A stretch of 44,560 bases of DNA, taken from IMG/VR virus record IMGVR_UViG_3300005260_000001, positions 1-44,560 of that record. One strand, written 5' to 3'. The DNA is from a virus. The notes beneath the pieces were generated by a model that was given only the letters and a program-made list of their open reading frames with translations, did not search any database and was not told the DNA's origin. Shown here in pieces: positions 1-44,560 of this stretch (its first letter is position 1; the number at the start of each line of letters is the position of its first letter). The translations under genes and the position numbers were made by a program.

Positions 1-99
1 CTGAGAAGCCGGTGACTTCGTCCTTCTGTGCTTGTTCGCACAAGACGGAAACCGTCACTGTGCTGGTGTGAACGCGCCCGCGCCTCTCCGTTGGAGGAA
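1..99. repeat. Terminal direct repeat, copy 1 (identical to 44462..44560)
   Basis: First 99 nt match the last 99 nt base for base. This implies a circular or terminally redundant unit of about 44,461 bp. Confidence 0.95.
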
Positions 100-304
100 C
101 GCGCTGAATGCGATGGCCGCCAGCCTCGTTCTCTAAACCAGCAATATCGTCGGTCACGATTACGGCGCCACCATCGAAAAACGTGGCGCGGTGCTTTCAG
201 CCTTTGGCCTCTAGAAAGCGCTCGTAGGCGCGCGCCAAATCATGCGCGAAAAGTTTCGCGTCATCTCCGCCTTCTGCGGCCCGAATTTCGATCGTCTTGG
301 TCAT
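1..304 (-). CDS. Class-I release-factor-like protein (no domain 1, RF1-type), 5' part; continues at 44106..44560 across the circular junction; in-frame TGA at 197..199
   Basis: Manual minus-strand translation: ATG(304..302) [84 protein letters not shown]... It is colinear with the E. coli RF1 segment [31 protein letters not shown]...[20 protein letters not shown]. An alternative in-frame ATG lies at 319..317. Confidence 0.6.
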
Positions 305-317
305 AGGATTTTCTAGC

Positions 318-590
318 ATGAACCGCCTGATTGTGCTAACGCTTTTCGCACTCGCCGCCTGCCAAACCGATCAGCCTGGAATACAGGTCCGCACGGTCAC
401 GCAGACGGTCGAAGTTCAACGCCCCTGTCCCGGCACAAAGCCACCGCGCCCAGCACCGCTTGCGCGCCCGCTGCCAACCGATCCAGTGCAGCTCGCAGCG
501 CTACTCGGAGCCAAGCTCGCCGAATACGCAGCGAAAGGGATGTACGCCGATCAGGCCGATGCAATAATGAACCGCTGCCTCACCCCCTAA
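318..590 (+). CDS. Lipoprotein, candidate o-spanin (Rz1-like)
   Basis: ATG at 318. Signal peptide with lipobox (MNRLIVLTLFALAAC), Pro-rich mature part (RPCPGTKPPRPAPLARPLP) and further Cys residues. It is the next plus-strand gene after the i-spanin candidate once the circle is closed. Confidence 0.55.
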   Translation: MNRLIVLTLFALAACQTDQPGIQVRTVTQTVEVQRPCPGTKPPRPAPLARPLPTDPVQLAALLGAKLAEYAAKGMYADQADAIMNRCLTP

Positions 591-619
591 GACCTTAGTA
601 AGCAAGGGTGCTGCTGAGT

Positions 620-955
620 TCAGTCCGAACTAGGGCTTTCCTTGCGGAGACGTTCTTCGCGAATACGCTCTCCGCTCTCAAGGAAGTCGTCGAGACCTGT
701 GGGCGTCAACAGCACCTTCGCTCGTTCATGGTCGGTCATCCTCGGAAGTTTGACCGCATGGTGGATGTCGTTCTTCCACTCGCTCACCTTGATCCCCCAA
801 CTCTCGAGCTCTGCCACATCCACCTCGCGCCCGAGCAAGAGCCTGGTCACGATATGGGACAGGATACCCTCGCTGCGGGCACAGTGGCGAGAGGCGTCAA
901 TGTCGCCGGTTATCTCGATGCGCCATTTGCCGGTAAGTTTCATCTGCCTGCCCAT
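620..955 (-). CDS. Hypothetical protein (111 aa from internal ATG)
   Basis: Protein-like sequence MGRQMKLTGKWRIEITGD...ERAKVLLTPTGLDDFLE. The N-terminal extension to 1189 has an odd composition, and shadow ORFs lie on the plus strand. Start uncertain. Confidence 0.45.
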   Translation of the reverse strand: MGRQMKLTGKWRIEITGDIDASRHCARSEGILSHIVTRLLLGREVDVAELESWGIKVSEWKNDIHHAVKLPRMTDHERAKVLLTPTGLDDFLESGERIREERLRKESPSSD

Positions 956-1198
956 GCGATCAGCGCAGCGCTCAACACAGCAAGCATCAGCAAGCCGCCA
1001 AGTAGCGTTCGGTTGGGCGTATCTGTCTTTTACAAACCCGACCGCAGAAACGGCGGATTTCAGCGGGTCCAACCTAGAGAACCGGAGTGGTGAAAATGAA
1101 GCATGAAATGTCGTACATCCGCCGGGTCTTCGCGGCGCTATGCATGCTGGGCCTTTGGTCGCCGAACTGGTGGCTACCCAAAGGCCCAACGTTGCCCC

Positions 1199-1423
1199 CT
1201 AGTGCGTGACGATCAGCCGCCAGCGAATGTTGCCTTGGGAGTAACCGTGCTGATGGTGGTTCTGCGGAGGCAGGGGATGCCCATGTGTCGAGACCACGTT
1301 CAGCCCGCAACCCTCGCAGCGGTAAATCCCCGAACGTGGGGTACTAGCCCCGGCCGAATGAACGCCATCGAACATGTTATCGACTGATTGGGCGAGGTAT
1401 TGGGGGTACTTGTAAAAGGCCAT
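1199..1423 (-). CDS. Small Zn-ribbon-like protein
   Basis: AAGGAAA Shine-Dalgarno 5 nt before the ATG. Contains a CEGC pair plus a His-rich HGHPLPPQNHHQH segment. Confidence 0.55.
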   Translation of the reverse strand: MAFYKYPQYLAQSVDNMFDGVHSAGASTPRSGIYRCEGCGLNVVSTHGHPLPPQNHHQHGYSQGNIRWRLIVTH

Positions 1424-2627: not shown

Positions 2628-3671
2628 TTATTCAGCATCTTGCGACCCCCGCTTGGCAAACCGGCGGCTCAGGTTTGCCACCGCTTCATCCGCCAAAAGC
2701 TCCCGATTGGCCTTTTCGGCATAGTGGGCGAACTGCTTGTCGGTCTTGTGGCCGGTCACGGCTCGGCCCTGGAATGTCGTTGCGCCGGATTCGGCTAGTC
2801 GGCGGCTCATGGCTTTGCGCAGCCCGTGCGGGGAGCAATGCGGAACGCCCGCCTTCACGCAGGCGCGCTTAAACCACTTGGCAAGCCCTTTGGTCGTGTA
2901 GGGCTTGCCGAACTCCGTCACCAGATAGGTCATGTGCCCGCTGTCGCAGGCGTCAATCGCGGCGTCGAGTTCGGGCGTGGCGGGGACTATCGTGTCGCTG
3001 TCATTCTTGCCGTGGTGCAGGTGGAATTTCCCGCCCCGGCGATGCTGGCGACCGACAACTGCCGCATCGCTCACTCGAAGCGCCAGATAGAGCATAAGCG
3101 CTTCGGCAAGGCGCTCCTTCGTGCCAAGTGGCCACCGGGCCTCGAACAGCGCGATTTCTTCCTCGGTCCATGTGTGAAAGCCCTTGCCCTCAGGGTAGGG
3201 ATCGGTGGCGTCCACAGGATTGTCCGAGCGCCAGCCCAGCCATACCGCGTGCTTGTGGATTCGCTTCAGTATCTTGCGTAGAACATTTGCCGCGCCCGGC
3301 GTCCCGGCCATGCTAACCAGCTTGTCATCGATCAGGCGAGCAGTCATGGTTTTGGCGCTCTTGGACCCGTTTTTTGCCCGGAACCGCTCAAGCACCCCAC
3401 GATAGGTTTTCTGGCTCGATGGCTTCATCTTGAGCCACTGTTTTGTGCGGTAAAAGCTTGAGATTAGAGCATCATAGGTGTAGGGTTCAAACCTTGGCTC
3501 TTTGACAGGTTCGGCATTTTTCGCTGCGGCGTATTCTTCCATGAACTCGCGCGATCCGGGGGAGTGTCGGAAGTGATAAGTCGGCTGCCCCGTCTTGCGG
3601 AAGCGATAGCGCTTCTTGCCATGCCGGTCGGTCCACTCGGTCACATTCTCGGGCAACCAGCGGCGTTTCAT
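2628..3671 (-). CDS. int: Tyrosine recombinase / phage integrase
   Basis: C-terminal catalytic region ...HGLRKAMSRRLAESG...VTGHKTDKQFAHYAE... (R, HxxR and H/Y signature). Sits at the end of the early operon next to a repeat-rich non-coding region. Confidence 0.9.
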   Translation of the reverse strand: MKRRWLPENVTEWTDRHGKKRYRFRKTGQPTYHFRHSPGSREFMEEYAAAKNAEPVKEPRFEPYTYDALISSFYRTKQWLKMKPSSQKTYRGVLERFRAKNGSKSAKTMTARLIDDKLVSMAGTPGAANVLRKILKRIHKHAVWLGWRSDNPVDATDPYPEGKGFHTWTEEEIALFEARWPLGTKERLAEALMLYLALRVSDAAVVGRQHRRGGKFHLHHGKNDSDTIVPATPELDAAIDACDSGHMTYLVTEFGKPYTTKGLAKWFKRACVKAGVPHCSPHGLRKAMSRRLAESGATTFQGRAVTGHKTDKQFAHYAEKANRELLADEAVANLSRRFAKRGSQDAE

Positions 3672-5624: not shown

Positions 5625-6135
5625 GATTACCTCCTTTAGGCGCGTCCTGCGGTAGGTTGGGCGCATCGGCCTGATGGCCGACCGGGCCTGCGGGCTTCGC
5701 CCCGAGCCGGTTCCCGTCTCGGCCAGAGGCGCTAGTCCCTTGCGCTGGTTCATCGTCTTTCGTCCAAACGACGCCATGCTTGGCACCGAAGGCAAACAGC
5801 AGTTCGATCAGGGCCGAGAATTGCTCCACAGTGAGCGTGGATGACCGTAGGCCCACGGGGAACACGCCAGCGCCTTCCAGTTCGGGCAGGAAGCGCATTT
5901 CGGCCCCCAAGGCGTTCAGGAAGCGTAGTTTCAGATCCTCCGCGCTGAACCGCGTCATCTCGGGCACCTGGCGCTGAATGTCGGCCAACATCGGCCAGAG
6001 CTTGCGATTCTGGTCATCCGTGCGGGTGCGCTGGCTTACCCGGCACACGTGATCCTCGGGCGCACGGTCGATCATCTGCTTGGCATGTTCGCGTCCGCGC
6101 TTCGTATCGAGAAAGATGGTGCGGCGCTCAGCCAT
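5617..6135 (-). CDS. ninB: NinB/Orf-family recombination mediator
   Basis: RTDDQNRKLWPMLADIQRQV and STLTVEQFSALIELLFAFGAKHGVVWTKDDE are colinear with lambda NinB (RSLDQNRKLWACLGDVSRQV ... EFAELLELIQAFGTERGVKWSDE). ATG at 6135 overlaps the upstream stop by 8 nt. Confidence 0.85.
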   Translation of the reverse strand: MAERRTIFLDTKRGREHAKQMIDRAPEDHVCRVSQRTRTDDQNRKLWPMLADIQRQVPEMTRFSAEDLKLRFLNALGAEMRFLPELEGAGVFPVGLRSSTLTVEQFSALIELLFAFGAKHGVVWTKDDEPAQGTSASGRDGNRLGAKPAGPVGHQADAPNLPQDAPKGGNLG

Positions 6136-6388
6136 GCCACTCCCCGCATAGGTCATCCTTCGCCTTCTTCGTTGCCTCGGGAAACCTGCGACAGCGCACG
6201 CTTGTGCGAGCGGCTTTATCAGCGGCGTCCCACAACAACTGGCGTGTGAAATCGAAATCGAACAGCGGATACCCGGCCCAAATCTGCCATAATTTAGGCT
6301 TAGGAGGCTCCCCTGTTGGGCGCGGTCCTTTTGGTGGATCGTAGGCCTGCGCATGGCAGCAGGTTTCGCAGCGCTTTGGCTTAGCCAT
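6128..6388 (-). CDS. Hypothetical protein (86 aa)
   Basis: Internal ATG overlaps the upstream stop by 8 nt. Sequence begins MAKPKRCETCCHAQ... Confidence 0.45.
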   Translation of the reverse strand: MAKPKRCETCCHAQAYDPPKGPRPTGEPPKPKLWQIWAGYPLFDFDFTRQLLWDAADKAARTSVRCRRFPEATKKAKDDLCGEWHG

Positions 6389-6731
6389 GCTTGGCCTCCC
6401 AAGCCGGCCGACCTTTCCAAGCATACCAGAACGTCCGGCACACCTCGCGCATGTCGAGCTTGTATTTTGCGATGAATGTATCCCAGCCTAGCCGATGCTG
6501 TTCTTCATGATGCCCGTCGCAACCCGCGAAAGCCCAGCAATCTGAAACCTTGGTCCCCATGCCCTTGTCGCCAGCCTGATCCCAATGACAGGCACGGACC
6601 TTCCCCCAGCACTCTCCGGTGTAGGCGAGTATGCAGTTACGCCCCCGCAGGAATTGCAGGAAGCCGGGGGCCGACTTGTGTTCGGGTCGGCCGCGGTTCT
6701 TGTGGCGGGGGGCAGTATCAACGCGGTTCAC
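6381..6731 (-). CDS. Zn-binding putative nuclease (YbcO/DUF1364- or DUF968-like)
   Basis: Cys/His pattern RNCILAYTGECWGKVRACHWDQAGDKGMGTKVSDCWAFAGCDGHHEEQH resembles lambdoid YbcO-type proteins. Confidence 0.5.
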   Translation of the reverse strand: MNRVDTAPRHKNRGRPEHKSAPGFLQFLRGRNCILAYTGECWGKVRACHWDQAGDKGMGTKVSDCWAFAGCDGHHEEQHRLGWDTFIAKYKLDMREVCRTFWYAWKGRPAWEAKHG

Positions 6732-9183: not shown

Positions 9184-9539
9184 GACGGGGTGCCCCGGCG
9201 GGCGAGGGCCGCATTGATTTGCCCAAGGATTATTGGGCAGTTATGCTGCGCCGTTTCCAAGATCGCGGGTATTGGAAGCGCTTGGACCCGCTGTATGACG
9301 TTGACCATGTCGAGGAATGCTTGAGCGCAGCCCTTGGCATTTTCGAGTACCCCCACCAGCTCAGCTTGGCTATCGATGCGGTGGCGGGTGAAGGCTTGGA
9401 TCGCGGGGTGCCCATCGCTTGGCAAGCCAACCGCAAAGCCGCGCACCTTGTGCATGAACACAACTGCAGCCTCGCGATCCTGTTGCGTCACCGGCAGCAG
9501 TTCTGCTTTGGTATCAGGGTTCGTTCGCTCCGACATCAT
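9180..9539 (-). CDS. Hypothetical protein (119 aa)
   Basis: ATG at 9539 is in an ATGA overlap with the tnpB stop. Protein-like sequence ...LPVTQQDREAAVVFMHKV...GHPAIQAFTRHRIDSQ... Confidence 0.5.
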   Translation of the reverse strand: MMSERTNPDTKAELLPVTQQDREAAVVFMHKVRGFAVGLPSDGHPAIQAFTRHRIDSQAELVGVLENAKGCAQAFLDMVNVIQRVQALPIPAILETAQHNCPIILGQINAALARRGTPS

Positions 9540-10642
9540 GCCGCCGCCTTTCTCGGAGAAACCGGCGCAACCGCCAGCTTGGCCTCCGCAGGACCACGAA
9601 CGGCCCTGAACAGGATTACTTGTGCCGCCGCCACGTCCCGATCGGCCTTGAAGCCGCAGGGGCACGAATGAACGCGCTCCGACAGTTTCTTCGGTTCGAC
9701 CAGGCCGCAGCTTGGGCAGGTTTGAGAGGTGCCGCGAGGATCGACCTTCACCACCTGACAGCCGGCGCTTTCAGCCTTGTCGGTCAGGATTTGAAGAAAG
9801 CCGCCCCATGCAGCGTCGTTTACGTCACGAGCGAGACGCGAACGCGCCAAGCCTTTGATGTTCAAGTCCTCGACCGCGATCAGCCCGAACTTGCGGGTGA
9901 GATCGGAAGCGACCTGAAAATGGAACGTGCGCCGACTGCGCCTGATTTTGGCGTGAGTGGCCGCTACTTGCTGCCGCGCTTTGCTCCGGCGCTTCGATCC
10001 GCGCTTGCACCGAGATAGCGCCCGCTGGCGACGGCGGAGTTCCTTCTGGGCTTTTCGTGCATGGCGCGGATTTGGTATCAGCGTGCCATCTGACAGTGCC
10101 GCGAAGCTCGAAAGGCCAAGGTCCAGCCCGATCGCTTCGGCATTGTCGTTTGCGGCCCCTTCAACCTCGCAAACGAGCGAAAGATACCAGTGCCGTCCCT
10201 CGCGCTTGATGCGGCAGGAAACGGGCTTACTCGGTAACTGACGGTGCTGGTGAACGCGGATCGATCCGATGCCCTTCGCATGGAAGCGACCGTCGAAGCG
10301 AAAGCCGTCAGCCTGCGGCCATGAGAGGCTTTTGAACCATTCGCGACCCTTGAAGCGAGGGAAGCCGCCGCGCCGGAAGAACGCCTTGTAGGCGTGGTCG
10401 ACTTGGCGCAGCGTCCCCCGCTGCATTACTGCGGGGTAATTTGCGAAAACTGGGTCAGTCCTCAGTTCGGTCAACGCACGACATTGGTCCATGAAGGACC
10501 GCCCGCGCCCGGTCTTGCGGTAGCATTCAATCCGTTCGGCCAGCGCCGCGTTATAGAGTTCGCGGCAATGTTCCAGGGCTTCGCGCAAGCGGTTGTGCTG
10601 CACGCGCGTTGGCTTAAGCCGAAAGCGATAGGAGCGTATCAT
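9536..10642 (-). CDS. tnpB: TnpB (IS200/IS605-family OrfB, RuvC-type RNA-guided endonuclease)
   Basis: 368 aa. N-terminus MIRSYRFRLKPTRVQ..., RuvC-I IGLDLGLSSF, RuvC-II LIAVEDLNIKGL, Zn finger CPSCG...CPCG, RuvC-III ADRDVAAAQ. All catalytic acidic residues are present. Confidence 0.9.
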   Translation of the reverse strand: MIRSYRFRLKPTRVQHNRLREALEHCRELYNAALAERIECYRKTGRGRSFMDQCRALTELRTDPVFANYPAVMQRGTLRQVDHAYKAFFRRGGFPRFKGREWFKSLSWPQADGFRFDGRFHAKGIGSIRVHQHRQLPSKPVSCRIKREGRHWYLSLVCEVEGAANDNAEAIGLDLGLSSFAALSDGTLIPNPRHARKAQKELRRRQRALSRCKRGSKRRSKARQQVAATHAKIRRSRRTFHFQVASDLTRKFGLIAVEDLNIKGLARSRLARDVNDAAWGGFLQILTDKAESAGCQVVKVDPRGTSQTCPSCGLVEPKKLSERVHSCPCGFKADRDVAAAQVILFRAVRGPAEAKLAVAPVSPRKAAA

Positions 10643-20864: not shown

Positions 20865-21220
20865 CCATGCCCGAAAAGCCTAAAATAGGTGTGAATAGGG
20901 GAAACGCGGGCAAGGGCCGGCCCAAAGGCGCGACCAACAAAACGACGACGCAGGCGAAGGAAGCGATTGCCCTTGCGGCCGAAGGGCTCGGCGGCACCGA
21001 ACGTCTGATCGCATGGGCACAAGAGGACCCGAAGAACGAAAGCGTCTTTTGGTCGTCGATCTACCCCAGACTCGTGCCGCTCGACGTGAACGGAACGCAT
21101 ACGCATGCAATCATGGACCGAGCCGAGCTGCTACAGCGAGCTGGCGACGAAGTTCGAGCAATCTTTGGTGACCGAACCGGAGATGGCGCACGCAATGATG
21201 GCAGAGGCCTGCCGCACTGA
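20861..21220 (+). CDS. terS: Terminase small subunit candidate
   Basis: Basic N-terminus GNAGKGRPKGATNKTT... Sits immediately upstream of and overlaps TerL. Confidence 0.5.
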   Translation: MTMPEKPKIGVNRGNAGKGRPKGATNKTTTQAKEAIALAAEGLGGTERLIAWAQEDPKNESVFWSSIYPRLVPLDVNGTHTHAIMDRAELLQRAGDEVRAIFGDRTGDGARNDGRGLPH

Positions 21221-22628
21221 TCTCTATTTCCTACTGCGCTACGGACTTCGCCGAGAGGACTGTGCTAATCGCTGGGTTTATGAGCGCTGCCAGGAGGTCC
21301 AGGCATCCCCAGATGGCCACTTGGACCTGTGGGCACGCGAGCACTACAAATCCACGATCATCACGTATGCGCTGACGATCCAGAACATTCTCTGCGATCC
21401 CGAAATCACCATCGGGATATTTAGTCACACCAGGCCGATTGCAAAAGCGTTCCTGCGGCAGATCAAACAGGAGTTCGAGCAGAACGACCTGCTGCAAAAG
21501 TGGTTTCCCGATATCCTGTGGCCCAATCCGCAGAAGCAAAGCCCCAAGTGGTCGGAAGACGAAGGCATCGTCGTCAAACGCAAGGGCAACCCAAAGGAAG
21601 CGACTGTTGAGGCGTGGGGGCTGGTGGATGGCCAGCCAACCTCAAAACACTTCGCCTTGCTGGTTTACGATGACGTTGTGACGCGCGAGTCCGTGACGAC
21701 CCCGGAAATGATGGCGAAAACGACAGCGGCTTTCGAGCTGAGCGATAATCTGGGATCGCGCGGCGGCCGCATGAGGTTCATCGGTACGCGGTATCACTTC
21801 AATGACACCTACAAAACGATCATGGATCGAGGGATTGCAAAGCCGCGCCTCTACCCGGCAACGGTCGATGGCAAGATGGAAGGCGAGCCGGTGTTTTTAA
21901 GCCGCGAAGAACTTGCGGCAAAGCGTATCAAGCAAGGGCCTTACACATTCGCCTGCCAAATGCTTCAGGATCCCAAGGCAGACGAAACGCAGGGCTTCAA
22001 AGAGGAATGGCTCAAGTTCGCCGCTCCGAACCCTGAGGGCTTGAACGTAGTCCTGCTGTTCGATCCCGCCAGCGCCAAGAAGAAGGATTCGGACTACACT
22101 GCCGCATGGGCGTTGGGCCTAGGCGGTGATCGCAACGTCTATGTGCTGGACTGCGTCAGGGACCGGCTCAATCTGACCGAGCGTGCTGACCTGGTGTTCA
22201 ACTGGCACCGCAAGTGGCGTCCGATGGCGGTCGGATACGAACGCTACGGGATGATGGCAGATATCGAGCATATCGAGGATCGGCAGGCGCGAGAGAACTA
22301 CAGGTTCACGATTACCGAGCTGGGTGGACAACAACCAAAGGTGGATCGCATTCGCCGGCTGATCCCGTGGTTCGAACAGGGGCGTATCTATATGCCCCAA
22401 GCAATGATGAAAACGAACTACGAAGGCCGCACGCTGGACGTGATCGGAGCCTTCATCGAGGAAGAGTTCAAGCCGTTCCCAGTCGCGCTGCACGACGACA
22501 TGCTCGATGCGATGGCGCGGCTGCTGGACAGCAACTTGCCGGTCGAGTTCCCGGCACCCACACCGAACCTGTGGGATGAAGACCTGGAACCGGCCGGCGC
22601 TGGCCGCAACGCAATGACGGGGTATTGA
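21105..22628 (+). CDS. terL: Terminase large subunit (start uncertain; alternative ATG at 21183)
   Basis: ATPase-like Walker B (ALLVYDDV). RNase-H-type nuclease region LFDPASAKKKDSDYTAAWALGLGGDRNVYVLD...HDDMLDAMA. Confidence 0.8.
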   Translation: MQSWTEPSCYSELATKFEQSLVTEPEMAHAMMAEACRTDLYFLLRYGLRREDCANRWVYERCQEVQASPDGHLDLWAREHYKSTIITYALTIQNILCDPEITIGIFSHTRPIAKAFLRQIKQEFEQNDLLQKWFPDILWPNPQKQSPKWSEDEGIVVKRKGNPKEATVEAWGLVDGQPTSKHFALLVYDDVVTRESVTTPEMMAKTTAAFELSDNLGSRGGRMRFIGTRYHFNDTYKTIMDRGIAKPRLYPATVDGKMEGEPVFLSREELAAKRIKQGPYTFACQMLQDPKADETQGFKEEWLKFAAPNPEGLNVVLLFDPASAKKKDSDYTAAWALGLGGDRNVYVLDCVRDRLNLTERADLVFNWHRKWRPMAVGYERYGMMADIEHIEDRQARENYRFTITELGGQQPKVDRIRRLIPWFEQGRIYMPQAMMKTNYEGRTLDVIGAFIEEEFKPFPVALHDDMLDAMARLLDSNLPVEFPAPTPNLWDEDLEPAGAGRNAMTGY

Positions 22629-22631
22629 GCG

Positions 22632-22877
22632 ATGTTCAATCAATACGCCGATTGCTCGATCATCGGCGGAGAAGGAACCGAGCGCACGCGGTACGCCTGC
22701 AAGCTGCGCCAAGCTGGCATCTCGACGTTTGCCGAGCTGACGAACCGCAAGCGCGACAAGATGTTCAAGCGAGCCTGTCAGGAGAATTGGTGGGGTAGCG
22801 CAGGCGTGTACGATCTGGACGACACAGAGGATCGGGCGTGGCTCGACCGCACTGATTTAGCGGAGGTGGGCGTCTGA
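22632..22877 (+). CDS. Hypothetical protein (81 aa)
   Basis: Lies between TerL and the portal. Its stop overlaps the portal ATG. Confidence 0.5.
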   Translation: MFNQYADCSIIGGEGTERTRYACKLRQAGISTFAELTNRKRDKMFKRACQENWWGSAGVYDLDDTEDRAWLDRTDLAEVGV

Positions 22878-24904
22878 TGGACAACCAGACCATCGACCTG
22901 CCTCATTCTGAGTTCGACGTAGCCGAACAGGTTGCGAGCGAGTTCAGCGCGGCCCAGATACTCGATGGCCTGGCAAAGACCGAAGGCGACATTTCCGACG
23001 CACTGAGCGAGGACCAGCTTACCGATCTCGGCTCGAAAGTGATCGAGGACTACGAAACCGACAAGTCCGACCGCGAGGAATGGGAAAGGATCGCTCGCGA
23101 CGCGCTTGAGAAAGCCGGTCAGGAAAAGGGCCGCGAGGAAAAGACCTATCCATGGTCGAAGGCGTCCAACGTTCAGTACCCGTTGCTGACCGTTGCCGCG
23201 CTCCAGTTCAACGCCAGAGCCTATCCGGCGATCGTCAAGGGCGATGAAGCGGTATCGGTCAAGGTGGTCGGTGCGGACAAGGGCGTTCCACGTCTAGGAC
23301 CCGATGGACAGCCGCTGGCAACGGTCAATGGCCTGCTGGTAGTCCCTACACCCCAAGGCCCTGCCATGATGGCTCCACAAGGCCCGGTGCCGGTCCCTGA
23401 GGGTGCTCAGCCGCAGATCGTATGGGCAAGACCGCCCGGAGCGAAGGCAACCCGTGCGCGGCGCGTAAAGGATTACCTGAACGCCACCATTTTCTACCGC
23501 ATGGAAGGGTGGGAAGGCGATACCGACATGCTGCTGATGCAGCTCCCGGTAATCGGCTGTGCGTTCCGCAAGGTCTATTACCGCGACGGCAAGCATTGCG
23601 CCAAACTGGTGAGCGCATTGAACCTGCTGGTGCCGTGCGACACGAAGGAGTTGAAGAACGCGGCGCGCATCTCTGAAATTCTTCCGCCGATGGCTCCGTA
23701 TGAAGTGCTGGAGAACATCAAGGCTGGGTATTTCCGGGCCGCTCAGTTCGTTGAGGGCGAGGAGTTCGACGGTAAATCCCGCAAGCTGATCGAACAGCAT
23801 CTGCGCTACGATCTGGATGGCGACGGCTATCCCGAGCCGTATATCGTCACGGTGGACCATGAAAGCCGTGAAGTCCTGCGGGTCGTGGCCAACTACGGAC
23901 CCGACGACATCAAGCGCAAGCAGAACGGATTGCTCGCGAGGATCGAGGCAGGCACGTATTACGTCAAGTACGGCTTCTTCCCGCATCCGGAAGGCAAGTT
24001 CTACGATCTGGGCTTGGGACACCTGCTTGCCAGTATCGGCAACGTGGTGGAGACGCTGGTAAACCAGATGATCGACGCCAATACGGTTGCGGTGGCCGGT
24101 GGTGGATTCATCGGTTCCGGGGTGAGACTACAGGGCACGAACCGCTCCACTACAATTAGGCTGGCGCCTGGCGAATGGAAGCCGGTCAACGTTCCCGGGG
24201 ATCAACTCAGGAACGCGATGGTCGAGCGGACTGTGCCGCAGGTATCGCAGATTACGTTCCAGGTGCTGGAATTGCTGTTGGGGGCGGCTCAGGACATCTC
24301 CAGCACGAAGGACGTGTTGACCGGCGACGCGAGCAACACCGGGCAGGTCGGAACCACGCTGGCGCTGATCGAACAAGGCCTTCAGATGTTCACCGCGATC
24401 TACAAGCGGGTGTACCGTTCGCTGAAGGACGAGTTCCAGCTTCTGTTCGACAACATCGGCAAGTACGCCACTGCCGAGACGCAAGCCGACTATCAGCAGG
24501 TGCTGGACGAACCCCAAGCCGATATCCGCGCCGACTTCAACGAACAGGACATGGATATCCGGCCGGTTTCCGATCCGACCAGCGTGACCAAGATGCAGAG
24601 CCTGGCGAAGGCCAATTTCCTGATGTCCACCGCGCCGATGGCCGTTCAGGCAGCGAACAATCCGGTGCTGCACAATATTCTGAAGCGGGTTTATGAGGCG
24701 GCAGATATCGAGGATGTCGATGGTATCCTGATCCAGACGCCTCCGCCGCCGCCCAATCCGAAAGACATCGCCAGCGCGAAGAAGGATTCCGCAGCAGCGG
24801 ATGAAAGCTCGGCCCGGGCGGCACAGATATTGCAGGACATGGAAGTGCAGCGCGTCGAGAAGGCCGCTGAGCAATTCATGGCCGGGATATCGGCTGCGGG
24901 ATGA
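22877..24904 (+). CDS. Portal protein
   Basis: 675 aa, directly after the terminase and before the head-assembly genes. Confidence 0.7.
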   Translation: MDNQTIDLPHSEFDVAEQVASEFSAAQILDGLAKTEGDISDALSEDQLTDLGSKVIEDYETDKSDREEWERIARDALEKAGQEKGREEKTYPWSKASNVQYPLLTVAALQFNARAYPAIVKGDEAVSVKVVGADKGVPRLGPDGQPLATVNGLLVVPTPQGPAMMAPQGPVPVPEGAQPQIVWARPPGAKATRARRVKDYLNATIFYRMEGWEGDTDMLLMQLPVIGCAFRKVYYRDGKHCAKLVSALNLLVPCDTKELKNAARISEILPPMAPYEVLENIKAGYFRAAQFVEGEEFDGKSRKLIEQHLRYDLDGDGYPEPYIVTVDHESREVLRVVANYGPDDIKRKQNGLLARIEAGTYYVKYGFFPHPEGKFYDLGLGHLLASIGNVVETLVNQMIDANTVAVAGGGFIGSGVRLQGTNRSTTIRLAPGEWKPVNVPGDQLRNAMVERTVPQVSQITFQVLELLLGAAQDISSTKDVLTGDASNTGQVGTTLALIEQGLQMFTAIYKRVYRSLKDEFQLLFDNIGKYATAETQADYQQVLDEPQADIRADFNEQDMDIRPVSDPTSVTKMQSLAKANFLMSTAPMAVQAANNPVLHNILKRVYEAADIEDVDGILIQTPPPPPNPKDIASAKKDSAAADESSARAAQILQDMEVQRVEKAAEQFMAGISAAG

Positions 24905-27791: not shown

Positions 27792-28706
27792 ATGCTTATC
27801 ACCCGTTCAGTCCACCCCAAGCTGCTGCTCCCGGGCGTCAAAGACTTCTTCGGCATGAAGTACAAGGACTACAAGCCGATCTGGTCGCAGATGTTCGAGA
27901 CCACCACCTCGCAGCGGGCTTACGAAGAAATCGTCGAAGAAAGCGGTTTCGGGCTCGCGGCCATCAAGGGCGAGGGTCAGTCGATCGCTTATGACACGAC
28001 CAGCGAAGGCGCGACCACGCGGTTTACCCCCGTGAATTTCGCCCTCGGCTTCATCGTCACCGAAGAAGAGGTGGACGACAATCTCTATGGCGACAAGGCG
28101 TTCAGTCGCGCCGGTTCGCTCGCCCGCTCGATGCGGGTGACCAAGGAGATCGTCCACGCAAACGTGCTGAACCGTTCGCAGAACAGTTCGTATGTCGGCG
28201 GCGATGGGGTGCAGCTCGTATCGAGCGCGCATCCCACGATCAACGGAACGCAGTCGAACCTGTTGACCGCTGCGGACCTGTCGGAAGCCTCGCTCGAAGA
28301 CGCGATGACCAACATCATGCTGGCCAAGGATAGCCGTGGCCTGCCGATCATGGCGCGCGCCGTCAAATTGCTGATCCCGCCGAACGAAGCGTTCAATGCC
28401 TACCGCATCCTGAACGCCCGGCTTCAGACCGGCAAGGGGACGGACTCGACCAACACAAACAACCCGAACGCGATGCGTGAAATGGGTTGGGCACCCGAGG
28501 TCGTGGTCAATCCCTACTTCGACGACACCGACCAGTGGTTCATCGTCACCGACGTTCCGAATGGCCTCCTGAGCGTTCAGCGCAAGGGTCTGGCGTTCGG
28601 CGATGACGGCGACTTCGACACCGGCAACCTCAAGCACAAGGCCCAGGAACGCTACGTTCCCGGTTGGGCCGACTGGCGTGGGGTGTACGGCAACGCCGGA
28701 GCCTGA
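27792..28706 (+). CDS. Major capsid protein candidate
   Basis: GGGGAGGG RBS. 304 aa, located after the scaffold and followed by a hairpin. The call rests on position and size. Confidence 0.6.
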   Translation: MLITRSVHPKLLLPGVKDFFGMKYKDYKPIWSQMFETTTSQRAYEEIVEESGFGLAAIKGEGQSIAYDTTSEGATTRFTPVNFALGFIVTEEEVDDNLYGDKAFSRAGSLARSMRVTKEIVHANVLNRSQNSSYVGGDGVQLVSSAHPTINGTQSNLLTAADLSEASLEDAMTNIMLAKDSRGLPIMARAVKLLIPPNEAFNAYRILNARLQTGKGTDSTNTNNPNAMREMGWAPEVVVNPYFDDTDQWFIVTDVPNGLLSVQRKGLAFGDDGDFDTGNLKHKAQERYVPGWADWRGVYGNAGA

Positions 28707-42616: not shown

Positions 42617-43081
42617 ATGCAGATTGGATCTGACGGCATAGCGCTTATCAAGCGTTTCGAGGGCTGCGCGAAGGCGCTCGGCAATGGCAGTTTCGATGCC
42701 TACCCCGACCCCGGAACTGGCGGCGATCCGTGGACGATTGGCTGGGGATCGACCGGCCCTGATATCCACAAGGGCCTTGTCTGGACACAGGCACAATGCG
42801 ATGCTCGCCTAGAGGCTGATCTACAGCATTTCTCGGCCAAAGTCGCCGCGATGGTGCCGAGCGCGACGCAGCACCAGTTCGATGCCCTGACCAGCTTTGC
42901 ATACAACCTGGGGCCTGGAAATCTCGCCAGCTCGACCCTGCTGAAAAAGCACAAGGCTGGCGACTTCGCGGGTGCCGCCAACGAGTTTCTCCGTTGGAAC
43001 CGAGCTGCCGGTCGCGTCCTGCCGGGCCTGACCAAACGCCGCGCTGCAGAACGCCTGCTGTATCTGGGCGAAGCGGCATGA
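42617..43081 (+). CDS. Endolysin, GH24 lysozyme family
   Basis: LIKRFEGC...AYPDPGTGGDPWTIGWGSTG...QFDALTSFAYNLG is the T4/lambdoid lysozyme signature. Confidence 0.9.
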   Translation: MQIGSDGIALIKRFEGCAKALGNGSFDAYPDPGTGGDPWTIGWGSTGPDIHKGLVWTQAQCDARLEADLQHFSAKVAAMVPSATQHQFDALTSFAYNLGPGNLASSTLLKKHKAGDFAGAANEFLRWNRAAGRVLPGLTKRRAAERLLYLGEAA

Positions 43082-43595: not shown

Positions 43596-43699
43596 ACACC
43601 CTACGTAAGCAATGGAACTCACTGACGCCGACTGGAAAGATGTTCGTATCAGTCGCAGCGGCTTTTGTGGTGCTGGCTGTGCTGGTGGCGGTGCTCTAG
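43592..43699 (+). CDS. Small single-TM protein (35 aa)
   Basis: Not in the ORF track. ATGA coupling. MNTLRKQWNSLTPTGKMFVSVAAAFVVLAVLVAVL. Confidence 0.35.
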   Translation: MNTLRKQWNSLTPTGKMFVSVAAAFVVLAVLVAVL

Positions 43700-44109
43700 T
43701 GCCTATCTGGCTGGCGAGCGCCGCGAAGGTCATTGGATGGAAGGGCTTCGTCTCGATCGGCCTCGCCATCGCCCTGCTGGCCGCTTGGCTGCTGCACAAG
43801 CATGACGTTGGCACAATCGAGAACCTGCGCAACAAGAACGCCCAGACCGAAGCGCGGCTTACGATCAGCAACCAGAGCATCGCCGAACTGCAATCCGACC
43901 TCGCCGCAAAGAACGCCGAAAGCCTTGCAAGAGCCGCTGCACTTACCGCCAGCGAGAAACAACGCGCTGCGGACGATCTGAGGCTCGCTCAGGAGCAAAA
44001 GGCATCGCAGACGCAGATTGACCGGCTCAATGGGTTAGCTCTCTCACAGAGGCCTGTAGGGGAATGCACAGTGCCGAAGGAGCTCGATGACGCGCTGACG
44101 GGCCTTTAG
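43699..44109 (+). CDS. i-spanin (Rz-like) candidate
   Basis: GTG overlaps the upstream TAG. N-terminal TM helix, coiled coil and a C-terminal Cys. A longer form from ATG 43612 is possible. Confidence 0.6.
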   Translation: MPIWLASAAKVIGWKGFVSIGLAIALLAAWLLHKHDVGTIENLRNKNAQTEARLTISNQSIAELQSDLAAKNAESLARAAALTASEKQRAADDLRLAQEQKASQTQIDRLNGLALSQRPVGECTVPKELDDALTGL

Positions 44110-44560
44110 GCCCATAGGCGATAAAATTCACCTCGCATTATATGCGAAGCCTTGGCCCGTTTGCCGGTTACGTGATCGACAACAGAGTCCTCTTGAAACC
44201 GATAGGTGCGCCTTTTGTCCCCGCGCATTCCTGCACCGATCTGCCGCTTGCGGATGCAATTCGTTTCGGCCTGCTCTGCGCTCGCCGCGCCTATCTTAAT
44301 GTCCCGAACAAGCGCGGCATGGGCTTCGCGATAATTTGCTTCGCGCGACCGCGACGACGCACCTATGCGTCTCTTGCCAGTCTCCAAATGGACCAGCTCG
44401 CAACAGTTCTGATGCTTGTTTCGGTGCTGACCGCCCTTGCCTGTGCCCGAGAACCATCGCACTGAGAAGCCGGTGACTTCGTCCTTCTGTGCTTGTTCGC
44501 ACAAGACGGAAACCGTCACTGTGCTGGTGTGAACGCGCCCGCGCCTCTCCGTTGGAGGAA
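44106..44560 (-). CDS. Class-I release-factor-like protein, 3' part (GGQ domain); 5' part at 1..304 across the junction
   Basis: ...[12 protein letters not shown]...FSGTGKGGQHRNKHQNCCELVHLETG...RTYRFQEDSVVDHVTG... has GGQ and RF-1 domain motifs. The frame stays open to the window end and continues at positions 100 onward. Confidence 0.75.
   Translation of the reverse strand, partial: PPTERRGRVHTSTVTVSVLCEQAQKDEVTGFSVRWFSGTGKGGQHRNKHQNCCELVHLETGKRRIGASSRSREANYREAHAALVRDIKIGAASAEQAETNCIRKRQIGAGMRGDKRRTYRFQEDSVVDHVTGKRAKASHIMRGEFYRLWA
44462..44560. repeat. Terminal direct repeat, copy 2 (identical to 1..99)
   Basis: Exact 99-nt identity with the window start. Confidence 0.95.

Follow-up and report, generated by a model that had tools for sequence, protein, structure and literature searches.

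A short RF1-type release-factor gene of a temperate phage with a conserved in-frame UGA, a candidate for control by stop-codon readthrough

Control of the RF2 gene, prfB, by a +1 frameshift at an early UGA is a textbook example of recoding. The stretch of DNA analysed here, hereafter the window (44,560 nucleotides; positions 1 to 44,560 of the IMG/VR virus record IMGVR_UViG_3300005260_000001), holds a gene for a short RF1-type release factor that is interrupted by an in-frame TGA at codon 36. It resembles prfB in being a class-I release-factor gene with an early UGA, at which the efficiency of recoding would be set by termination, and its distant relatives share the slippery codon of prfB and the 3-nt spacer that follows a Shine-Dalgarno (SD)-like element. 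It differs from prfB in that the window gene continues in frame 0 and needs readthrough, with no +1 shift on CUU UGA C, in that the protein is of the RF1 type with the site in domain 2 and not in domain 1, and in that the product is presumably unable to recognise the sensor codon, so that simple autoregulation would not apply. A readthrough-type control of release-factor synthesis was proposed long ago, before prfB had been sequenced, and was reported never to have been found; a 2016 review of recoding stated that there was no RF2 gene in which the ORF runs on in the same frame past an early in-frame UGA, and that the corresponding RF1/UAG arrangement was unknown (PMC5009743).

Canonical RF1 (prfA) is the best match of the window protein in both sequence and fold and shares with it the PxT tripeptide, the Gln/His/Thr decoding residues, GGQ and the switch-loop region, whereas the window protein lacks the ~105-residue domain 1 and ~25 C-terminal residues and is phage-borne. 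We know of no prfA with a recoding site such as the one in the window gene. PrfH (RFH), part of the RtcB2-PrfH ribosome repair module, likewise has no domain 1 and keeps GGQ, but it has a divergent decoding region of its own and is always paired with RtcB (PMC1586002); the window gene has RF1-like decoding residues, no RtcB in the window and lysis genes as neighbours. Another viral release factor whose synthesis needs stop-codon recoding is that of Mimivirus and Megavirus, where a class-I release-factor gene contains one readthrough and one frameshift, interpreted as bacterial-like autoregulation (PMC3521657). That factor is of the eRF1 type (eukaryotic/archaeal), belongs to a eukaryotic virus and requires two events, whereas a bacterial RF1-type factor, phages and one event are concerned here. 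Huge phages encode RF1, RF2 and transfer-messenger RNA (tmRNA) (PMC7162821), and the recoded Lak, Jade and Agate phages encode full-length release factors (bioRxiv 10.1101/2021.08.26.457843). These phage termination factors are often found among tRNA genes and tmRNA, as is the short family, but they are described as standard-code and uninterrupted and as serving a genome-wide code switch, whereas the window phage, which keeps to the standard code and is without tRNA genes, encodes a factor that is truncated and itself recoded. No description of the short RF1-like family or of its recoding was found in the literature, with most subscription journals outside the full-text coverage, and a prior description is possible.

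The window begins and ends with an exact 99-bp terminal direct repeat (1..99 = 44462..44560), and the contig is therefore a circular assembly with a unit of 44,461 bp. When this overlap is read once only, the minus strand of the circle gives a gene of 219 codons, made up of 35 sense codons from the ATG, the TGA, 183 more codons and then a terminal TAA, for a conceptual product of 219 amino acids (Table 1). The gene is visible only on a circular reading, as an earlier note on this DNA had pointed out, and the translation is identical to the one given there. More generally, any junction-spanning gene is invisible to finders of linear open reading frames (ORFs). Both of the other Trp codons of the window gene (44456..44454 and 44114..44112) are TGG.

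Judged by its profile and fold matches, the gene encodes a ~219-amino-acid class-I release factor of the RF1 type consisting of domains 2-4. The conceptual product matches Pfam PCRF (2.6e-21) at profile positions 103-194 of 194 only, that is, over its last 92 positions, and RF-1 (8.2e-12); among NCBIfam models it matches prfA (2.5e-44), prfB (1e-18) and PrfH (1e-6), all under the family cut-offs, with a prfA score of 151.8 bits against an equivalog cut-off of 400 and a match that begins at profile position 107 of 347. In a phmmer search of PDB sequences, E. coli RF1 was the best match (3e-31), with RF2 at 1e-10. Residues 5-36 align to E. coli RF1 from residue 113 onward without a gap, so that the TGA falls on the RF1 Trp, and past the TGA the alignment continues along RF1 with no residues missing; the ~105 residues of RF1 domain 1 are absent. 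The decoding elements QRVPPTE and GRVHTS, as well as GGQ, align to E. coli RF1, and Gln67, Thr72, His79 and Thr80 correspond to RF1 residues responsible for selecting A at position 2 and A or G at position 3, the structural roles of which are known from ribosome structures of RF1 and RF2. A specificity for UAA and UAG is predicted from these RF1-like residues. The earlier note had assigned the gene to the RF1-type family, with domain 1 missing, an RF1-type PxT tripeptide and GGQ retained and the TGA on the conserved Trp, and in all of these points it is borne out. An RF1 truncated of domain 1 is reported to be active in vitro and in vivo and unable to engage RF3 (PMC1586002); lacking domain 1, the window factor is presumably not recyclable by RF3.

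An AlphaFold model made on a family member whose TGA was verified in the DNA (P0030; pLDDT 89.7) superposes on ribosome-bound RF1 with TM scores of 0.83-0.89 and on free, closed RF1 with only 0.54, while its match to RF2 is poorer than that to ribosome-bound RF1. PrfH is absent from the top 50 fold matches of this model, and the window protein found no PrfH chain at E <= 1e-3 in PDB sequences; the PrfH model TIGR03072 scores 28.4 bits against a cut-off of 166.65 and covers the GGQ domain only, and a tblastn search with phage RtcB found no RtcB in the window (best E 0.47). The description of the protein as PrfH-like in the earlier note thus holds for the missing domain 1 and fails on the score, on the RF1-type decoding residues and on the absence of RtcB. 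The ArfB model gave no match to the window protein, and an ArfB/ICT1-type GGQ rescue factor was ruled out as a candidate, the codon-recognition domain 2/4 being present and well conserved.

Conservation speaks for the TGA being functional. An IMG/VR scan with the single window protein as query found no relatives; an alignment-based scan gave 393, of which 80 were retrieved and 73 could be scored at the homologous codon. This codon is TGA in 72 of the 73 and TAA or TAG in none, the exception (L007) reading TGG GCG TGA, and chance is excluded by this recurrence; the collection of homologues that the earlier note had suggested, as a means of deciding between TGA and TGG, therefore comes out for TGA. 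Each of the 75 genes scored end to end has one in-frame stop, always TGA, while all of their other Trp codons are TGG (154/154) and 70 of the genes end in TAA. Classification of 142 genes gave 98 with the in-frame TGA and 44 with a +1 shift, and not one that was intact. The in-frame TGA lies at or near codon 36 in 98/98 relatives with an in-frame interruption, and 93 of these 98 genes of the readthrough clade carry the PPT tripeptide. There are also variants, in L098, L100 and Variovorax, with the in-frame TGA 10-15 codons downstream. The nearest database proteins (65-70% identity) have all been called as fragments of 162-183 amino acids that begin just past the stop; the DNA of the three closest relatives (L001, L002 and L003; 67-69% protein identity) shows the missing 35 codons, followed by TGA. 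The context is GGC TGA ATG CAC CGC in L001 and L002, GGT TGA AAG CAC CGG in L003 and GGC TGA AAG CAC CGC in the window, and the flanking synonymous sites thus differ among the three relatives (GGC/GGT before the TGA, CGC/CGG after it), which accordingly count as independent lineages. In a scan of one genome per species, the closest cellular copies were those of Alphaproteobacteria, including Pararhizobium (56%), Sphingobium, Sphingomonas, Kiloniella, Jiella and Gemmobacter, and all of them have the in-frame TGA. By the Nei-Gojobori method, pN/pS is 0.29 over the 35 codons before the TGA and 0.35 over those after it, at a pS of ~0.79, near saturation, indicating that both halves of the gene are translated and under purifying selection.

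The surroundings of the TGA are also constrained. The preceding codon is GGN in 65 of 67 unique genes, and the base that follows is A in 54, C in 7, G in 6 and T in none; a U in this +4 position is reported to reduce readthrough (PMC5289835). RNAalifold found no conserved pairing across the family between -30 and +75 around the TGA, and by this result a SECIS element or other stimulatory hairpin was ruled out. No tRNA(UCA) occurs in 37 related loci, where tRNA-Trp(CCA) is common. By eye, two of 13 phage tRNA-Trp(CCA) genes (L036 9718..9791; L081 1663..1736) show a mismatch at the 27:43 pair, which leaves an anticodon stem of 4 bp, a feature linked to UGA reading in a 2026 paper (PMC13092985).

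More distant copies of the gene were found in Myxococcota (Minicystis, Nannocystis and many metagenome-assembled genomes (MAGs) of Polyangia), in Betaproteobacteria (Thiobacillus denitrificans and a Hydrogenophilales MAG), in other MAGs and in large viral contigs. In these, the N-terminal segment lies in another frame, with the junction CTT TGA C and the downstream ORF at +1, usually preceded by an SD-like GGAGG, GGGAG or GGGGG with a 3-nt spacer, as in GGGGGCATCTTTGACC; this junction is the prfB cassette. The 44 frameshift sites follow the pattern CTT T(G/A)(A/G), with the slippery codon CTT in all 44, an SD-like element in 34, TGA as the stop in 37, TAG in 5 and TAA in 2, and C (36) or G (8) as the next base. 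The shift occurs 30 codons past the IRAAEGG motif of domain 2, at most one codon from the place of the readthrough TGA, and L173 has an in-frame CTC TGA C exactly at the frameshift spot. The joined products (~224 amino acids) are without domain 1 and match RF1 (194-219 bits) better than RF2 or PrfH, while their tripeptide varies (PPN, PPS, PPG). A second IMG/VR scan with the frameshift clade yielded 41 classified genes, with a +1 shift in 30, an in-frame TGA in 5 and an intact frame in 4. The median identity between the readthrough and the frameshift clades is 41%, and that of either to E. coli RF1 37-39%; PPT, GSGMRGDK and the missing domain 1 are common to both. Over more than 180 scored genes the TGA is conserved almost throughout, and nearly every member of the short RF1-like groups appears to need stop-codon recoding, by one of two mechanisms.

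Three copies depart from these patterns. The gene of a Hahella MAG (L092, ~6001..6664) has TGG at the Trp codon and CTT TAG C with the remainder at +1, which would make it a frameshift site built on an RF1-specific stop codon. That of Nannocystis pusilla (L157, ~6001..6668) reads CTTGAC, with a T missing, and an upstream AAG reads AG in comparison with close homologues, two homopolymer deletions which suggest long-read assembly errors and not biology. In a 634-kb uncultured phage (LR745206.1; L167, 3001..3669) there are two in-frame TGAs (..VEH*IPGYVSI*LTG..), reflecting either a TGA-recoded phage or a double readthrough.

We propose, with a probability of about 0.65, that programmed UGA readthrough, probably with insertion of Trp, ties synthesis of the RF1-type factor to poor termination at UGA. 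The UGA at codon 36 would be deliberately maintained in the mRNA; termination there would release a 35-amino-acid fragment, and the full-length protein would arise only from decoding of the UGA as a sense codon, most likely by the near-cognate tRNA-Trp(CCA), which would restore the ancestral Trp. Because only RF2 reads UGA, the output would be inverse to RF2 activity, rising when RF2-dependent termination is slow or saturated and falling when it is efficient, and the circuit would thus act as a translational sensor of termination capacity. It would parallel the prfB +1 frameshift control, but by readthrough and on an RF1-type factor. The loop would be one of cross-regulation by RF2, since UGA should lie outside the specificity of the factor, and would close if extra RF1-type activity at UAA freed RF2 for UGA. 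Trp as the inserted residue is supported by the Trp of RF1 at this position and by a TGG codon there in P0069/L171, L092 and L007, rare relatives that have no interruption or one of another form. UGA misreading in E. coli and Salmonella inserts Trp, and in B. subtilis readthrough rises from 6% to 19-54% in prfB mutants (PMC7918605). Trp insertion, RF2 dependence, specificity for UAA and UAG and a physiological role are inferred; the factor may, for example, supplement termination or rescue in infected cells or in lysogens. Strong comparative evidence favours the leaky decoding of UGA as Trp and the dependence on RF2 that the earlier note had listed among its possible readings, whereas the counter-defence role raised there is conjectural.

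Several observations weigh against this proposal. At the window release-factor gene there is no obvious SD sequence, and a scan of 1..1200 found no sigma-70-like promoter near it. Stops other than TGA are used at frameshift sites, with TAG or TAA at 7/44 genome sites and 7/30 viral-contig sites, and RF2 specificity is accordingly not universal. At least one member is truly uninterrupted (P0069/L171, with TGG at the codon), and together with the few further uninterrupted relatives (L184, L203/L204, L219) it indicates that recoding can be dispensed with. A common origin of the two clades is plausible from their shared features, at an identity only slightly above that to E. coli RF1. Readthrough, its efficiency and the inserted residue are predictions from gene sequences. 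Finally, the decoding residues predict recognition of UAA and UAG, so that there would be no clean autoregulation, and the benefit of the circuit is argued indirectly.

The most serious rival is direct autoregulation by an altered specificity, in which the short factor would read UGA, or all three stops, and stop its own translation at codon 36, in the manner of RF2 on prfB. It would account for the use of two recoding mechanisms on a stop at the same position and for the detail with which the prfB cassette is copied, and the tripeptide is PPT and not the usual PAT or PVT, varying further in the frameshift clade; TAG and TAA at frameshift sites would be expected of a factor that reads several stops. 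We nevertheless regard it as unlikely, since the four decoding residues match the RF1 selection residues and RF1 models score far above RF2 models, while the constancy of TGA in the readthrough clade is also explained by a single TGG-to-TGA transition combined with misreading by tRNA-Trp. Less probable again is a fixed throttle, by which the TGA would keep a potentially toxic extra factor at a few percent of initiations with no regulation. The basal leakiness of UGA would give such constitutive low expression, there is no conserved stimulatory RNA element and some relatives are uninterrupted, but a weak ribosome-binding site or promoter would serve equally well and would not entail conservation of one codon at ~79% synonymous difference. 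Moreover, two stop-dependent recoding mechanisms, one of them the SD-stimulated prfB-type cassette known to respond to the RF2 level, point to sensing.

We find little room for a split gene giving a 35-amino-acid peptide and a 183-amino-acid protein by termination and reinitiation, for selenocysteine insertion or for ribosome hopping. The TGA ATG of L001 and L002 would suit reinitiation, and the GGN-stop arrangement superficially recalls the take-off site of T4 gene 60; the codon after the TGA is, however, usually ACT, AAG, GCT or CTN and not a start, the window having AAG there with the next possible start, a GTG, 17 codons on, and both parts belong to a single, uninterrupted helix-strand unit of RF1 domain 2. 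Selenocysteine is opposed by the lack of a conserved SECIS-like or other hairpin, and hopping by the RF1 alignment that runs past the TGA with no residues missing. A reading of TGA as Trp throughout the genome (code 4) of the phage or its host, or a late code switch as in recoded gut phages, is scarcely credible, even if many members of the family appear in code 4 among public gene calls and a full-length RF1 is encoded by TGA-recoded Jade phages (bioRxiv 10.1101/2021.08.26.457843). TGA is the terminal codon of the large conserved terminase, portal and major capsid genes of the window, 4-nt overlaps across a stop join several pairs of genes, and a scan for other window ORFs split by a single stop returned ordinary gene boundaries only; the phage thus uses TGA as a genuine stop. 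There are also no tRNA genes in the window and no tRNA(UCA) in the related loci, and the other Trp codons of the family are all TGG, in agreement with the earlier note, which had thought genome-wide recoding unlikely. A recent nonsense mutation, a sequencing error or a decaying pseudogene with scattered stops, for which the single transition between TGG and TGA and the single assembly of this phage might be cited, can be set aside, as L001-L003 and ~95 more distant relatives carry the same TGA, the 98 relatives show no other in-frame stops or frameshifts and both halves of the gene are under purifying selection.

The genomic surroundings of related genes bear on their role. In large phages, the gene is placed in islands of tRNA genes. 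Of the 37 related loci, 22 contain at least 5 tRNA genes at distances of up to 10 kb from the gene, and a phage tmRNA starts at the stop of the gene or within ~600 bp of it in six (L010, L017, L022, L024, L061 and L072). Amber-suppressor tRNA(CTA) genes are found nearby in L010, L017, L024, L040 and L072, and a tRNA(TTA) in L024. These surroundings place the family in phage modules for translation and rescue, consistent with a role in termination or rescue, but could also reflect shared ancestry within a subclade. In the Myxococcota loci, no gene neighbour is conserved beside the release-factor gene. Other neighbours recur in the L008-L083 phage subclade, namely a CX5R dual-specificity phosphatase-like protein, a calcineurin-like phosphoesterase and an AAA_33 P-loop kinase; in L171 the neighbours are Macro and Thg1, and in L166 an RtcB lies ~8 kb away. 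These neighbours hint at RNA repair; they may be synteny by descent and were not used for functional assignment.

On a wider and more tentative view, to which we assign somewhat less than even odds, phages, prophages and some bacteria (Myxococcota, Betaproteobacteria) would share a large, unrecognised family of RF3-independent RF1 paralogues, switched on by failed termination at a sensor stop, through readthrough or a prfB-like frameshift, and acting in termination stress or ribosome rescue so as to sustain phage translation when host RF2 is limiting or attacked; this would be the first natural circuit of the readthrough type. RF1-type genes have been thought to be without recoding control (PMC5009743), and here one family, with hundreds of sequences from phages and bacteria, shows both designs. 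A specialist would expect neither a conserved UGA readthrough in an RF1-type gene nor the reuse of a prfB cassette at the same site in an RF1 paralogue. If correct, the proposal would provide a natural, compact UGA-readthrough sensor, for which GGN UGA A appears to suffice with no RNA structure, and would suggest that phages monitor and supplement the termination capacity of their hosts, in line with a gene that often adjoins phage tRNA arrays and tmRNA. The old hypothesis of control by readthrough becomes directly testable.

The recoding site also has consequences for annotation. The ~222-amino-acid database proteins that appear intact, with a Trp, are code-4 gene calls, and the DNA of three of them (P0003, P0030 and P0046; loci L170, L165 and L163/L164) has TGA; their contigs are mostly ~1-6 kb in length (checked loci, 1.6-5.8 kb). 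RefSeq splits the copy on a Variovorax plasmid into a 'hypothetical protein' and a 'peptide chain release factor-like protein' and misses that of Bosea. If the proposal holds, this amounts to a systematic annotation error, whose forms are splitting, truncation or omission of the gene or its translation in code 4, and on short metagenomic contigs a single recoded gene may bias the choice of code or create false code-4 signals.

Table 1. Positions of the release-factor gene, of other genes of the window phage and of phage tmRNAs in related loci.
Feature	Location	Strand	Remarks
Release-factor gene, first segment	200..304	-	ATG 304..302 and codons 2-35; corresponds to helix alpha-5 of RF1 domain 2; EGGDD tip at 274..260
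Release-factor gene, in-frame TGA (codon 36)	197..199	-	Proposed readthrough site; context GGC TGA A
Release-factor gene, second segment, part 1	1..196	-	Codons 37-101 and first base of codon 102; contains Gln67 (106..104), PPT (97..89) and HTS (70..62)
Release-factor gene, second segment, part 2	44106..44461	-	Remainder of codon 102 to codon 219, then TAA 44108..44106; GGQ 44435..44427; switch-loop-like GAGMRGDKRRTYRF stretch
Putative o-spanin, divergent neighbour	318..590	+	Small Pro-rich lipoprotein-like ORF, MNRLIVLTLFALAAC...
Integrase	2628..3671	-	phrog_1, 1.1e-25
Terminase	21105..22628		Ends in TGA
Portal	22877..24904		Ends in TGA
Major capsid	27792..28706		Ends in TGA
Endolysin	42617..43081	+	phrog_7, 4e-58
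Putative i-spanin, convergent neighbour	43612..44109	+	Predicted membrane segment and coiled coil; position after endolysin
Phage tmRNA near short release-factor gene	L010 10660..11173; L022 10660..11123

By its gene content the window represents a tailed phage, and the integrase marks it as temperate (Table 1). The release-factor gene is antisense, between the lysis cassette, of which the putative i-spanin gene is the last ahead of it, and the integrase, in a typical cargo ('moron') position, and this solitary position makes its expression in the lysogen possible. The spanin calls for the two flanking ORFs are suggested by sequence features and position, neither ORF (43612..44109; 318..590) having an HMM match. 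The release-factor ATG and that of the lipoprotein-like ORF (318..320, +) are 13 nt apart, and the palindromic CATG offers an alternative in-frame minus-strand ATG at 319..317; as a divergent pair, each of the two genes would need its promoter to sit within the other. Among GenBank phages, the release-factor gene has no close relative (best identity 39.5%), megablast of the whole phage gave no match and the identity of the terminase does not exceed 28%; no Rfam family was found in the window. Between 600 and 2600, no gene call is convincing by length or GC3, and the attachment site may lie here. A 368-amino-acid ORF (9536..10642, -) matches a transposase family (phrog_506, 5e-94) and possibly belongs to an insertion sequence. 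In a relative with 54% identity (L004, 10907..11353), an endolysin homologue is encoded on the other strand at a distance of ~250 bp from the release-factor gene, a position that echoes the proximity of the gene to the lysis cassette in the window.

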